DNA of 64,000 nucleotides from Eledone cirrhosa (Eukaryota). A model generated the notes under the pieces. The model was given only the letters and a program-made list of their open reading frames with translations. It was not told the DNA's origin and searched no databases. The stretch covers positions 125,426,001 to 125,490,000 of the forward strand of contig OZ024745.1 in assembly GCA_964016885.1 (NCBI GenBank). Reading direction: 5' to 3'. Positions 690 to 63,300 of the stretch are shown in pieces (positions within the stretch are counted from its first letter, which is position 1; every line of letters starts with the position of its first letter). A program made the translations under genes and the position numbers.

Positions 690-930
690 ACTCATTTGCA
701 TACTAACTCATAACTTTTTATTACCCTCAATAAAGTATTATCTCCACTATCCAGGAAGCTCCAACCGTTAAAGTTGTCTTTTTTCCGGGTATGTCAATAT
801 TTATTTATAAAACAAATCTGTATTTTATCTGATGAAAGCGCACCCTAATTTTCCTTGGTTGCCCTTGAAATATGTATAATAAAATAAATATGGTTTTATA
901 AATATAGTTTCCATTTATTAATATATTGTA
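690..930 (+). mobile_element. Family A HHR-bearing pseudo-LTR fragment ending at (TA)n
   Basis: Shares 'ttataaaacaaa..tattttatctgatga..aaatatggttttataaatatagtttccatttattaatat' with copies near 36280, 37440, 55880, 61580; left boundary approximate. Confidence 0.6.
821..886 (+). ncRNA. Type I minimal hammerhead ribozyme, family A (PLE pseudo-LTR)
   Basis: tattttat-CTGATGA-aagcgcacc..ggttgccctt-GAAA-tatgta-TA-ataaaata: perfect 8-bp stem I, canonical core, imperfect stem II, short stem III, AUA site. Confidence 0.8.
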
Positions 931-981
931 TATATATATACTTAAGTAAACATTAATGCAATTCGCTTTTCCTTATTCGAG

Positions 982-1150
982 ATATATATATATATATATA
1001 TATATATATATATATATATATATATATATATATATATATATATATATATATATATATATATATATATATATATATATATATATATATATATATATATATA
1101 TATATATATATATATATATATGTGTGTGTGTGTGTCTGTGTGTGTGTGTG
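982..1150. repeat. (TA)n then (TG)n microsatellite; representative of dozens of (TA)n tracts in the window
   Basis: Direct reading. Confidence 0.98.
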
Positions 1151-1404
1151 TGGTTAGAGCATTGGGCTTGCAATCGAAAGGCTGTGAGTTCAATTCTCGG
1201 ACCGAGTGAGGTGTTGTTTCCTGAGCAAGACAGTTTATTTCACGTTGCTCCAGTTTACTCAGCTGTAGAAATGAGATGAGGAGGTACCGGCCTGCCCGCC
1301 CAGTCAGTGGGATGGCGTTATCTTATGGCTAAAACAGCACGACGTGCTGTGACCAGCGGCGCCGATTGGCGCCTAACAGACTGGTCGGTCAATGTGGTCA
1401 AGGT
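1151..1404 (+). mobile_element. tRNA-derived CORE-type SINE
   Basis: tRNA-like head (tggttagagc..gagttcaattc) followed by CORE-like 'cctgagcaagacagtttatttcacgttgctccagtttactcagctgtagaaatgag'; related copies at 26560 and 27570. Confidence 0.7.
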
Positions 1405-1959
1405 GATATATATATATATATATATATATATATATATATATATATATATATATATATATATATATATATATATAGCAGTTAGTTACAGCCTAATTTTACT
1501 CAACCGTAGGGAAGTTAGAACAAAGTCAGAAGGGACGCATACACATTTAAACATGAGCATACATACTTTAAACTTATAATTTTATATAGCTCTGATTAAT
1601 GATTATTTATCTTATTCATTCGTTCATTGAGCCACATCGTTGAAGGTGGTCTACACTCATATACGTATCTATGCTTATGTTGTTTAAATATGTGTCCCTT
1701 CTGACTTTATATATATATATATATATGTGTGTGTGTGTGTACACATAAATATATATATATACATACATATTTATATATTTGTGTGTACATATGAATATAT
1801 ATATATATGTGTATATGTATATATATATATATATATATATATATATATATATATATATATATATATAAGTGTGTATACATATAAGTATACTTGTATATGA
1901 GAAATGTATCTGCTTGTGTCTGTGTTTGTAAGGTGTATGTCTTGATCTCTGTGAACATT

Positions 1960-2340
1960 TTTTACATCAGCTGCCCTTCGCAGTATCTTTGGGCATATGT
2001 CTTTCGGTCGAAAGAATCTTTTTGATATAATATTAGAGTGGAATGCCAAATCATATAGAGCTTCTCAGTTGCACAGGCGGCATTCCTAAATGTATTTGCA
2101 TTATCTAGTACTGACCTTATGATGATGTTTGTCATTGTGTTGTCTCTTGATTTCTAAATTTGATTTGACAGTAATATGGAGTTTTCGAGGAGGTGATGTC
2201 GAAATGGGTTGTGTTCATACAAGTGTCTTTCGGATAAGTGATCTGTAAACCCTCTTTAGCGTTTTTATACATTTCTGGCGAATACATCGACAAGGTTTGC
2301 AATACCTTTCTCTGAACATTTAGATTGTAAATATCTAGTA
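1960..2340 (-). pseudogene. Degraded PLE GIY-YIG endonuclease C-terminal remnant
   Basis: Minus strand reads CRLCN*EALY, resembling the CxLCxxEK motif at the end of PLE endonucleases; many stops. Confidence 0.35.
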
Positions 2341-2401
2341 CAGAAATTAAACAAAACTAGATTATATAAACCCCGGAGAATTCATATAATTGTTTCTATT
2401 T

Positions 2402-2570
2402 TGGGCACAAGGCCAGCAATTACCCAGTACATTACTGGTACTTTATTTTATCGACCCCGTAAGGATGAAAGGTAAAGTTAACCTCGGCTGGATTTGAACT
2501 CAGATCATAAAGGGACGTAACTCTATGCTTCAAAGCATGGTGTCCGACTCTCTACCGATACTGAAACCTA
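2402..2570 (-). mobile_element. Abundant tRNA-derived SINE (family S1; central domain gcctttcatccttacggggtcgataaaataaagtaccag, Meta-domain-like)
   Basis: On minus strand: B box gagttcaaatcc and conserved central domain; about 25 copies in window. Confidence 0.85.
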
Positions 2571-3594
2571 CTAACTGTAAAGGACAGCATCCAATACGAC
2601 TAAAAAGTAAGCTTTCCTTCCATATATTAATATAATTCAGAATAAGAAAAAAGTTTTAATGTTACTCTTAAAACAAGTTTAAATCAATGGATTTGTAATA
2701 GTTTTTATGTTCAAGGAATTAATTATAATTCATTCTTTTCGCATCCTTCTTCAAAATAACTTATATCTTTGCAAAGAAATTGCAATGCAAAAAATGTGGT
2801 TGTTTTTTTTTTTTTATCAAATTATAGAGTATCGAGGAATTAGTGTCCTTCTTAGAAGTCTAGTAGAAATCTAGTTTTTAATTTGTCGATATAAAAATTG
2901 TTATAATTTTTATATGTAACTTTTTTTTTTTTTTTTTTTACATCGGAGAATTCTTTAATGTACAATTTTTTCCTAATTCAAAATTTAAAACATCGAAATA
3001 TTGAATAAAATAAAACATCATAAAAGTTTCATTTGGAGTTTTTTACCGTTTTCAAGATCGTCATATATATGCATTATGATAATTTTAAGAATATTGTACA
3101 ATGCATGTTTTTCTATCCTAATTAATGGTTTATTATATATTTTTTTATGTTTATGACGAAGGAGTTGTAAACAGGAATATAATGTAATATTTTTGCTTGT
3201 ATGAATTTAATTATATTTTTCGTTTTAATATTAAGGTTGTCCCGTTAGTTCGAGATACAAATTTTACTAAATCTTTGAAGTTAAAAACTAAATGTATGCT
3301 TCAGAAAAACACATCTTAAAATTAAAATAACTTTTAAAAAATTACAATAAGTTATTTTAATGTTATTTAATTTGGAAATCTCGGAAGATGAAAAATATTG
3401 GAAAATATTATGAAAATAATGTTTTAAGTAACTGACATAAATGTTTATCATACTATGTCTCAATTTAAAAAAAACATACAGAAAACAAATAAAATTTAAA
3501 TGTAAATTAAATTTTAATTCCAATATTAAGTAGAAAAAACTTATCTTGCAGGAAAAAGCAAATAATAATGATGATAATAATTGTTTCTAATGTT

Positions 3595-61248: not shown

Positions 61249-61450
61249 ATAGGAACAAGTAAGACCCCGACGGCTGAGCTCAAGCCGTTTTGACGGCTAA
61301 TTCTGTACTGCAGTACAGAATTAGCCGTCGAAACGGCTTGAGCTCAGCCGTCGGGGTCTTACTTGTTCCTATTACCCACTCCACTACCCTAAGTATTGAG
61401 TACTTTGGTGCGTTATGGTCCACCTGGTTCCTTACCACATTTTCTTCATT
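61249..61450. mobile_element. Family D element with about 125-bp fold-back palindrome
   Basis: ataggaacaagtaagacccc..ctgtactgcagtacag..ggggtcttacttgttcctat. Confidence 0.75.
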
Positions 61451-61621
61451 ATATATATATATATATAGATATAGATATATATATATATACATCTATATAC
61501 ATATATATATACATACATCTATATACATATATATATATACATATATACATATATATATATATATATATATATATATACAATGATATTAAATAAATGGAAA
61601 CTATATTTATAAAACCATATT

Positions 61622-61682
61622 TACTCTATTATATATATTTCAAGGGTACCAAAACTTTGGTACGCACTCATCAGATAAAATA
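61622..61682 (-). ncRNA. HHR family A
   Basis: tattttat-CTGATGA-gtgcgtacca-aagttt-tggtaccctt-GAAA-tatata-TA-atagagta. Confidence 0.75.
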
Positions 61683-61807
61683 CAAAGTTTGTTTTATAAA
61701 TATAGACATATCCAGGAAGAAGGTCTTAATGGTTCAAGTTTTTCCAGGAAAAACTTGAACCATTAAAATATCCCTTTTGCTTATATATATATATATATAT
61801 ATATACA

Positions 61808-62095
61808 CACAGAGATATCCATGGTAAGTTGTGGGGTCGTCTAGTCTGCATGAAGAACTCAATGTAATCTATATGTTGAAAATGTTATAGGTTCAAATAA
61901 ATCCCAGAAAACAATAAAACAGCTGGTGATATACAGGTAAGTAAATATTTTCCTTATCTGATATTTTGTAACAAACCTTACATAGATCGATAACGAAGTA
62001 TTGTTACGATATATTATCATCACCTAGAAACGATCGTAAACCAGTGAAATATATTTCTAATGACTTGAATTTTTATTTCATTGTTTTAACTTATA
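61808..62095. mobile_element. Family B element with inversion; HHR (61916-62046) lacks its 5' core
   Basis: 61808-61921 matches 10195-10301; 61916-62095 matches 17669-17848. Confidence 0.75.
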
Positions 62096-62139
62096 TATAT
62101 ATATCGCTTTTAGCTTTTCCGATTATGTATTTATATATT

Positions 62140-62800
62140 TACTCTTGTAGCAACAAATATGACCTTTCCCGATATAAGGTATGACTCTCTTTGTTTATTT
62201 GTTAGATGAATATTGATTGTTTGTTCTTATATCTCATTCTGCTATTTTGCCCGAGAAAATATCTATATGTGTCATAAAGCGGTGAACACATGGTTATTTT
62301 TTCATATCCAATTGAGTTCTCAGCACGTGGCTTGAATTCTTGTCAGAGTTCAACGACCTGCGCATGTATTGTTTTTGGTGGTAGCCTCTTTCCACCCATT
62401 TTTGGGACAGTGTGAGATTTTCTTTAGAACTGCTGGACTAACAACCTAGCAGTCCCCTCAAGCACTGATGGTGATTATCGCTAGATATTGATGTTGATTT
62501 GGTTATCAATACTAATATTATTGGGTACCCACTGAGATTTATAAGTGCCTTCTTGAATAAGTATCTGTTGATCTTATACAAGCTTCTACATAACTTGGTA
62601 TAATTTCACACAACTTTTAGAAATCTTATAGTGAAATGAGTCGTCTGGGAAATGATATATTTGATATATCTCATATGAAATAATACAGCCAATAATCCAC
62701 ACAATACAATATAGTTAACACCCCAAACATTTAATTGGGAATATACTCAGGTATTTCCTAATGTTTGTTGAGTGAGTTGGAATTTGGCCGGAGTATCGAT
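62140..62800 (-). pseudogene. Degraded PLE thumb/endonuclease remnant
   Basis: Weak: NLSGYP thumb-like and PYIG motifs; bounded by direct repeat ttttagcttt(c)tccgattatgtatttatata. Confidence 0.35.
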
Positions 62801-62848
62801 TTTAGCTTTCTCCGATTATGTATTTATATATATATATATATATATATA

Positions 62849-63300
62849 TTTCGTTTCTGAATTTTTTTAGCAAGATTCTTTATCTGAATTCGTGTGTTGA
62901 AACCGATATTGTTATACTTTGGGAGGGTCATGTTGCCAATAAGAAACACACGCACCAATTGCTTTCACTCCAATTTATTATAAATAAAATTTATAAATTT
63001 AAGAATTTATAAATTTCTGGTTGGTTGGTTGGTTGGTTCCACAACCAGACGATTGATCATATATTGTAAAAGTTCTTTCGTCACACATTCTGTGACCTCT
63101 TCAGTGACTGGGGCTTCTTTTCTTTGTTTTTGTGCCTCTCCTTTGTTCTGTCCTAAAACAAGATGGCGTAGGACAGAACAATGGAGAGGCAGAAATTTAT
63201 AAATTCTTAAATTTATAATTTAATTTATAATAAATTGGAGTGAAAGCAACTGGTGCGTGTGTTTCTTATTGGCAACATGACCCTCCAAAGCATAACAATA
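62849..63300 (-). mobile_element. Solo family C pseudo-LTR with inverted 3' piece; degenerate HHR at 63065-63109
   Basis: High identity to 12156-12455; CTGAAGA-g-gtcaca-gaatg-tgtgac-GAAA-gaac retained, stem I 3' arm mutated. Confidence 0.8.

Follow-up and report, generated by a model that had tools for sequence, protein, structure and literature searches.

Hammerhead motifs in Eledone cirrhosa as ends of Penelope-like elements, with a twin hairpin that may position two reverse-transcription starts

What are the many hammerhead ribozyme motifs that crowd one (TA)n-rich stretch of the Eledone cirrhosa genome, and what decides where the elements carrying them end? The stretch (64,000 nucleotides [nt] of GenBank assembly GCA_964016885.1, contig OZ024745.1, positions 125,426,001 to 125,490,000 of the forward strand; GC content 33%; hereafter the window) had been predicted to hold a mixture of autonomous Penelope-like elements (PLEs) and non-autonomous, retrozyme-like elements. 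Our analysis indicates that the motifs are almost certainly the ends, or pseudo-long terminal repeats (pseudo-LTRs), of endonuclease-bearing PLEs. In the account we favor, to which we assign a probability of roughly 0.7, these ends represent at least eight PLE families, 5′-truncated and often inverted within (TA)n, and in those families placed in the Hydra clade a pair of hairpins likely sets two starts of reverse transcription. The link between hammerheads, PLEs, and (TA)n is already in print; the twin hairpin is a new observation.

The motifs greatly exceed the number found in shuffled sequence. A descriptor for the type I order (stem I, YUGANRA, stem II, GAAA, loop, UH, stem I′) that requires at least 4 bp in stem I finds 10 matches in the window versus 0.35 ± 0.48 (maximum 1) in 20 local dinucleotide shuffles, and a looser variant with a 3-bp stem I finds 15 versus 0.6; the predicted order is present at the listed places, at a frequency unlike that of shuffled DNA. 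In a sample of 40 evenly placed, non-random 10-kb stretches (400 kb, or 0.013% of the 3.0-Gb genome), the stricter descriptor returns 40 matches versus 0–3 in five shuffles, from which we extrapolate a genome total of about 300,000 hammerheads (bootstrap 95% interval 190,000–430,000). Intact motifs occur about once per 5–6 kb in the window and once per 10 kb in the sample, more sparsely than the one per 3–4 kb originally estimated. The estimate of some 15–20 motifs holds in part: 12 of the 17 listed motifs pass (821, 10374, 12363, 14698, 14856, 17658, 18092, 18205, 18478, 36319, 37466, and 61622) and one more (25636) passes under a separate, looser rule only, while four are broken, through deletion of the 3′ half of stem II, GAAA, and the cleavage site (55905), a change of U16.1 to A (11951), absence of the 5′ core (61916), or a disrupted stem I (63065).

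The internal structure of the matches points the same way. When the helix III rule is dropped, 454 kb (counted with one AT-rich satellite stretch, L299, set aside) yield 50 matches, and the loop is palindromic in 37 of them (27 by Watson–Crick pairs only); among distinct loops, 8 of 20 are palindromic versus 1.4 expected. The predicted palindromic loop III is thus the common state, with family C (GAAC/GGAC) as an exception. Changing a core letter lowers the count from 39 to 0–2, or from 50 to 1–8. Positions 3 and 8 covary, with 39 C-G and 11 U-A pairs and 0–9 instances for each of the 14 other combinations; the largest remaining class, A-G (9), includes two mutated copies of family A. The core boxes, the three-way junction, C3-G8 or U3-A8, U16.1, and H17 are all present in families A, B, B′, C, E, F, and G, and the family G hammerhead has a 4-bp helix III, a palindromic loop, and a GUC site. 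Adjacency to (TA)n is polar: of the 40 sampled motifs, 39 are followed by (TA)5 within 212 nt, versus 17% of random positions, and just 12 are preceded by it. These results bear out the predicted association of minimal type I hammerheads in PLE pseudo-LTRs with (TA)n. Other hammerhead families, with other palindromic loops and no counterpart among the window's families, were observed in the sample at L292:3176, L303:455, L305:3020, L305:6992, L307:323, L308:3341, L314:9378, and L288:6792.

Could these be chance matches in AT-rich, repeat-rich DNA? Loose descriptors do match AT-rich satellite: L299 mimics U3-A8 hammerheads and adds 20 false matches when included. Rfam, moreover, reports no hammerhead or other real family among the matches listed for the window (150 of 205) or for eight loci bearing both hammerheads and hairpins (44 rows); the matches in both sets are microRNA models on repeats. 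Against this stand the roughly 30-fold excess over shuffles, the dependence of the counts on core letters, the covariation of positions 3 and 8, the variety of palindromic loops, and the fixed position of the motif within each element, which leave chance with next to no weight.

The elements themselves identify the motifs as PLE ends. All six listed families (A, B, B′, C, E, and F), together with D and G, run on into an open reading frame (ORF) for reverse transcriptase (RT) and GIY-YIG endonuclease, which confirms the predicted physical attachment of B and C to such sequence. The prediction of at least five families was correct for those six and missed D, G, and G′. The frames are open in B′ (831 codons between two repeats in L258; unit 6506 bp), C (1238 codons in L076), D (887 codons in L189), and G (733 codons in L265), and broken but contiguous in A, B, E, and F. 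For family A, the 5′ repeat, tail, and ORF start are found in L073 and the endonuclease upstream in L269 and L273; family B shows a frameshifted repeat–ORF–repeat arrangement in L267 (unit about 4.3 kb); family E has an RT and GIY-YIG region of which about 3 kb is common to L342 and L345, and 1.5 kb to L346; and family F has RT and endonuclease upstream on the same strand at one locus (L274). Direct repeats surround ORFs in L077, L258, and L267. Pfam recovers RVT_1 and GIY-YIG for D and for the window copy of C, and gives no match for the B′ or full-length C proteins. First-look genome searches, whose candidates are not copy numbers, returned 169 for A, 1479 for B, 613 for B′, 944 and 466 for E, 1347 for F, and 1593 for G, with protein searches returning 32,649 for C and 18,096 for D. 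The 3′ untranslated region (UTR) of B′ (L258:4480-8040) is 3.6 kb long, consists to 53% of TA/TG/CA dinucleotide runs, and is about 90% alike between copies; this element may therefore spread microsatellite-like DNA, its own target type included.

Clade placement follows from protein motifs and identity. Hydra-clade elements are marked by DKT, a CxCx5C linker, and the lack of CCHH in the endonuclease (PMC8557442). DKT and CxCx5C are present in B′ and G, whose endonucleases lack CCHH; CxCx5C is found in the A-type L273 and DKT in L073; and B and F are placed by 32–78% identity to the B′ protein. On this basis A, B, B′, F, and G would belong to the Hydra clade, and G′ probably does as well. A homologue search returned 122 relatives, and an RT tree separates B′, G, F, and seven homologues from C, D, and E (support 100/100), with long branches and without a named reference; compared by eye, the B′ and G proteins follow Hydra-1_Obim over the part shown. 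Family C (linker CIDKKCITC, DKS) and family E (CGRSNCGIC, or Cx4CxxC, DKG), both with CCHH-type residues in the endonuclease, appear to be of Neptune/Nematis type, and D (DKG, without a linker motif) of Penelope/Poseidon type; these labels come from motifs, and linker and CCHH cannot surely split Neptune from Nematis.

Most copies in the window lack an ORF, which favors the reading of a separate retrozyme-like population spreading through self-cleaved circular RNAs. Animal retrozymes appear to derive from PLE pseudo-LTRs (10.64898/2026.07.22.740005), and 10 of the 40 sampled motifs match none of the window's families and have untraced parents. Retrozymes are, however, head-to-tail short repeats with no coding body (PMC7229834; 10.64898/2026.07.22.740005), and no head-to-tail hammerhead repeats of 150–450 bp appear among the window's tandem repeats or in the 400-kb sample, where the 14 close neighbor pairs comprise seven head-to-head, five tail-to-tail, and two same-strand pairs of different families. 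Every listed family traces to an RT–endonuclease element in the E. cirrhosa genome; the 5′ ends of short copies differ from copy to copy and carry inverted arms, as in 5′-truncated PLE insertions; and head-to-head copies would pair as RNA, masking the ribozyme. For the listed families the retrozyme reading is largely refuted, and overall we consider it improbable. Family E was also considered as a fixed palindromic miniature inverted-repeat transposable element (MITE), since 40 scored copies shared one center; the query itself held that center, a right-arm query gave varied 5′ ends, and an ORF-bearing parent was then found, so the candidate was rejected.

If the motifs mark truncated PLEs, the form of their 3′ ends becomes informative. 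Each family's copies end at one of two sites, the pseudo-LTR end or the tail end, both joined to (TA)n; where copies are full-length, the element body begins with the tail sequence. Among 109 inverted pairs, the tail is on exactly one arm in 95, on neither in 11, and on both in three. Dissimilar in other respects, the tails of A, B, B′, F, G, and G′ have one motif in common: in Hydra-clade elements a bulged hairpin occurs twice in the stretch separating the hammerhead from the start codon, and it consists of a 4-bp helix (RCUC/GAGY) nearly invariant in sequence, a 2-nt 3′ bulge starting with U, a variable inner helix and loop, and then NCU (mostly ACU). The published Hydra-1_Ajap consensus also displays both hairpins before the ATG (PMC8557442 supplement).

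The hairpin recurs well beyond this genome. We collected 77 Hydra-type loci from metagenome contigs, 35–44% identical to B′ and including 57 with near-complete matches; among these 57, where there is room, a hammerhead lies 5′ of the ORF in 19 of 38 and 3′ of it in 20 of 40. A tail pattern restricted to ACTC matched 4 of the 44 outside loci with at least 150 nt before the ORF; the general pattern, derived from that output and retested with controls, finds at least one hairpin in 31 of the 44 and two in 21, versus 4 of 131 ORF windows and 1 of 44 antisense sequences. The inner helix lies outside the search pattern, yet all 61 distinct instances preserve its first pair (CG 43, UA 17, UG 1; shuffle mean 49). 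The two pairs that follow hold in 42 of 58 instances (shuffle mean 24) and 32 of 40 (shuffle mean 17), and only a 2-nt bulge register works. RNAalifold, applied to 23 instances of similar length, recovers the same eight pairs, five with two-sided changes. In six families from this genome, hairpin 1 carries an A-U pair in place of the G-C pair of outside copies. A resemblance of the family G tail to an antisense twister ribozyme was rejected: the required pairs misfit, and the sense-strand hairpin accounts for the conservation. The eight Rfam-scanned loci matched no family for the twin hairpin, and we found no description of it in the literature searched, a scope outside which lie Repbase and Dfam entries and subscription journals; "stem-loop" has no occurrence in the text and supplement of PMC8557442, with no mention in the parts covered, and the covered parts of 10.1101/2021.04.23.441226, PMC6765202, PMC13282606, and PMC5737381 likewise hold no description.

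The two 3′ ends of the Hydra-type families align with the two hairpins: hairpin 1 begins shortly after the pseudo-LTR end, and hairpin 2 shortly after the tail end. Upstream of the helix, the junctions map to 2–7 or 6–7 nt and 3–9 nt in A, 4–9 and 6 nt in B, 4–7 and 5–8 nt in B′, 4–6 nt in F, and 5–8 and 3–6 nt in G, and to 3–8, 5–9, 3–8, and 5–7 nt at outside loci. Six nucleotides is the sole value common to 13 of the 14 dominant ranges (9 of 9 ends from this genome, 4 of 5 from outside). A TA dinucleotide occurs at −9 to −3 in 56 of 61 hairpin instances, and at 10 of 14 ends at least three alternating T/A bases are shared with the target, versus 24% of positions in the same regions; the family B tail end shares no TA bases with its target. 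In vitro, two internal reverse-transcription starts bound the tail of the PAc Poseidon element (PMC11167929). Taken together, the hairpins probably position two reverse-transcription starts.

A possible mechanism can be outlined. Element RNA would extend across the 3′ pseudo-LTR and on into the beginning of the tandem unit that follows, and the Hydra protein, possibly as a dimer, would bind hairpins 1 and 2. The endonuclease would nick (TA)n, and each nicked end would use 2–6 bases to pair with TA-rich sequence located about 6 nt to the 5′ side of a hairpin, priming cDNA there; two early-stopping cDNAs, once joined, could give a head-to-head pair with the tail on one arm, the tail corresponding to the distance between the two hairpins. 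Weak cleavage, in dimeric form or aided by protein, is predicted for the hammerheads, with the exception of G and G′, where a longer helix III could permit monomer cleavage. Cleavage by minimal PLE hammerheads is inefficient and occurs chiefly in dimers (PMC4209133), and most copies here are single or head-to-head, so few are predicted to cleave. For PAc Poseidon the hammerhead was unneeded for insertion, RNA cleavage occurred only with protein, and a dimer is predicted (PMC11167929). Family D, whose core lacks A9 in 16 of 16 copies and is for that reason termed only hammerhead-like, keeps this core while young (copies 95–99% identical), which fits dispensable cleavage. The fuller proposal, in which the hairpins are a clade-wide feature of Hydra-type PLEs and act as rulers, with starts 6 nt upstream of each and a dimer using both to produce the tail and the one-tailed head-to-head arm, joined to the suggestion that intact hammerheads at about one per 10 kb may be the densest reported load in an animal, strikes us as evenly balanced.

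It is also conceivable that the PLE ends are as described and the hairpins act at some other step, either signaling to the endonuclease as DNA or serving transcription or translation as a 5′ UTR signal, while some other reason keeps the TA-rich spots in place. The hairpins do lie in the 5′ UTR, hairpin 2 usually 35–66 nt before the ORF start; the near-invariance of the first helix would suit such a signal; and the endonuclease of D. virilis Penelope is reported to have needed the tail as DNA for recognition (PMC11167929). Yet hairpin 2 is missing from nearly all inserted 3′ ends, and the tail end still stops about 6 nt before its site, which points to a role on the template. The distance from end to hairpin is also held while tail length changes, as the spacing between hairpins varies from about 55–75 nt at outside loci to 94 (A), 135 (B), and 138 nt (B′) here, and the inner pairs covary like a single-strand helix. 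We therefore regard action at another step as unlikely and prefer template positioning.

Several observations nonetheless weigh against the account we favor. Microhomology turns most junctions into ranges rather than points, one outside junction lies at 8–10 nt from its hairpin, and the B tail end comes from few copies (two at 6 nt, two at 7–8 nt, and four unscored). The E and G loci were fetched with tail-bearing queries, which biases the inverted pairs toward at least one tail. Families C, D, and E also have two ends, and no such hairpin was seen in their tails; the pattern is absent from 13 of the 44 outside loci; and in the single full copy of family A that was observed, one pair of hairpin 2 is broken. 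Common descent links the hairpin instances, so that shuffle p-values overstate significance, the 10 instances from this genome were hand-picked, and the G-U and A-C counts (12 vs 5) leave RNA versus DNA unsettled. Finally, the PAc Poseidon start site is not homologous to the cut DNA (PMC11167929).

How PLEs choose two internal starts, and how tailed inverted insertions arise, is an open question, and a hairpin of 25–40 nt with an exact predicted offset makes it testable, with young open-frame families (B′ copies are 99% identical) as a source of protein. The hairpin may also serve to flag Hydra elements during annotation and to locate their true 3′ ends. The natural variants among some 300,000 intact-looking hammerheads, including long stem II, C·A at 10.1/11.1, a monomer-type family, and a young family lacking A9, offer a graded set with which to examine the importance of PLE hammerheads in transposition.

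Features of the window are collected in Table 1. Between 8548 and 18856, at least eight PLE ends from seven families are joined in a row by (TA)n tracts that neighbors share, a pattern to be expected if every insertion supplies targets for later ones. The family D insertion lies in a T run of the B′ arm (split at 15016 / 16412), not in (TA)n. An inverted repeat of 221 bp (99%) around 530 bp, at 59846-60817, ends at (TA)n without a convincing hammerhead and could represent a MITE or a further PLE end; short palindromes, perfect or nearly so, at 17190-17262 and 57045-57108 may be very short inverted PLE ends. Elsewhere, the plus strand at 4419-6120 carries a frameshifted reverse transcriptase of long interspersed nuclear element (LINE) type (Pfam RVT_1, DUF6451), presumably RTE-like. 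A 180-bp repeat resembling a short interspersed nuclear element (SINE) has more than 20 copies, some in tandem (2384-2563, 3574-3928, 6634-8172, 19790-19965, 29886-30760, 58221-58428, and others). A 182-codon open frame with a low-complexity middle and no Pfam match, at 23366-23914 on the minus strand, is possibly a host exon.

Table 1. PLE-derived features of the window (window coordinates; clade and type names are assigned from protein motifs or identity)
Family	Span	Strand	Feature	Hammerhead	Hairpin 1	Further detail
A	698..936	+	Pseudo-LTR 3′ end	821-886 (C3-G8, loop TATGTA)		Belongs, as 3′ repeat, to a rearranged Hydra-clade copy with its 5′ repeat, tail, and ORF start 2.1 kb to the left of the window
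G	9404..9612	+	Inverted arm (9404-9467) and direct arm with tail		9541-9567	5′-truncated within stem II
B	10193..10674	−	Inverted arm with tail	10373-10516 (U3-A8, 107-nt stem II insert, loop CGATCG)	10234-10319	
B	10684..11578	+	Frameshifted Hydra-clade RT fragment			45–71% identical to B′ protein
B	11792..12142	+	Direct pseudo-LTR	11951 (U16.1 to A)		Ends in (TA)n
C	12154..14474	−	5′-truncated Neptune-like PLE	12363-12407 (pseudo-LTR)		RT 12948-14474; GIY-YIG 12611-13033 (frameshift); tail to 12154
B′	14494..15016	−/+	Head-to-head pair	14699-14847 (minus arm); 14854-15008 (plus arm)	14545-14628	Minus arm 14494-14847 with tail; plus arm 14851-15016, resuming at 16412-16474 past the D insertion
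D	15017..16414	−	PLE 3′ part	Hammerhead-like, ~15212-15248 (−), without A9		GIY-YIG 15860-16414; 3′ UTR with 162-bp repeat
B	17555..17965	+	Short inverted arm (17555-17658) and direct arm	17657-17800 (direct arm, intact)	17854-17930 (tail)	
E	18018..18381	−/+	Head-to-head pair (Neptune-like)	18094-18129 (−); 18207-18242 (+); U3-A8, 3-bp stem I, loop CCGG		Tail on plus arm only
F	18422..18815	−	Pseudo-LTR (Hydra clade)	18478-18532 (loop TATATA)		
G	18835..19050	−	Diverged copy with tail		18902-18928	
E	25607..25845	+	Degenerate copy	25638-25673		Followed by a short family G piece
A-type	36191..36379	−	Copy with tail	36319-36379 (loop TACGTA)		
A-type	37276..37568	+	Inverted tail (37276-37382) and direct arm	37466-37530 (direct arm)	37342-37364 (minus)	
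G′	42173..42350	−	Copy with tail	Plus arm, G12 changed; G′ has a 3-bp helix III	42215-42236 (tail)	
A-type	55885..56081	+	Copy	Broken by deletion	55996-56019	
G	56309..57038	−/+	Head-to-head pair	56309-56407 (−; G12 changed); ~56850-56943 (+); whole, decayed	56960-56986	
G′	57779-57832		Second copy	3-bp helix III		
G	61249..61456	+	Inverted arm and direct arm with tail			
A-type	61570..61722	−	Copy	61622-61682 (loop TATATA)		
B	61810..62096	+	Inverted tail (61810-61921) and direct arm			Direct arm truncated within the 5′ core
C	62847..63301	−	Pseudo-LTR with tail and short inverted arm	63065 (stem I broken)		

Hammerheads and (TA)n targeting are both known from PLEs, the Hydra clade among them, and the families described here are new families within that kind. 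According to PMC8557442, whose supplement includes an octopus family, canonical hammerheads occur in Hydra elements, nearly all of which insert into (TA)n. With published Hydra-clade elements (Hydra-1_Obim, Hydra-1_Ajap, and Penelope-1_NV) our families share a C-terminal GIY-YIG domain without CCHH, DKT, CxCx5C, a hammerhead in the 3′ repeat, (TA)n insertion, and inverted 5′ arms. They differ in length, the B′ unit (6.5 kb, with its 3.6-kb 3′ UTR) and the B unit both exceeding a published tendency to less than 3 kb, and in their tails, which measure about 80–140 nt versus 30–40 (PMC8557442). U3-A8 (B, G), stem II inserts of more than 100 nt, and C·A at 10.1/11.1 (B, B′) are absent from the Hydra hammerhead table of that paper, and five motifs (from A, B/B′, F, G, and G′) have no match in its supplement, where line breaks could mask one. 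The Neptune/Nematis-type (C, E) and Penelope/Poseidon-type (D) families conform to known relatives in having RT followed by GIY-YIG with CCHH-type residues, pseudo-LTR hammerheads, and a tail, and depart from them in the missing A9 of D and the non-palindromic loop III of C.

The minimal hammerheads of PMC4209133 are likewise of type I, with a short palindromic helix III and a U3-A8 variant, and are mostly single motifs of truncated PLEs with some opposite-strand pairs 100–700 bp apart; here, in contrast, G10.1-C11.1 is often missing, and family G has a stable helix III and a GUC site. The extrapolated load of about 300,000 compares with 9,000 in Xenopus and 126,247 in axolotl (PMC4209133; PMC7229834), counts for which the descriptors differ. 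Animal non-LTR retrozymes (PMC7229834; 10.64898/2026.07.22.740005) share type I hammerheads and non-coding, high-copy DNA related to PLE repeats, and differ from the copies here in their head-to-tail short repeats, whereas each listed family here has an ORF-bearing parent. A functional parallel is PAc Poseidon (PMC11167929), in which paired internal starts likewise bound the tail and the target is AT-rich; its start lies at one AC-rich stem loop inside the ORF, whereas in the families described here each end lies beside its own 5′ UTR copy of the hairpin, with 2–6 nt of TA homology to the target.

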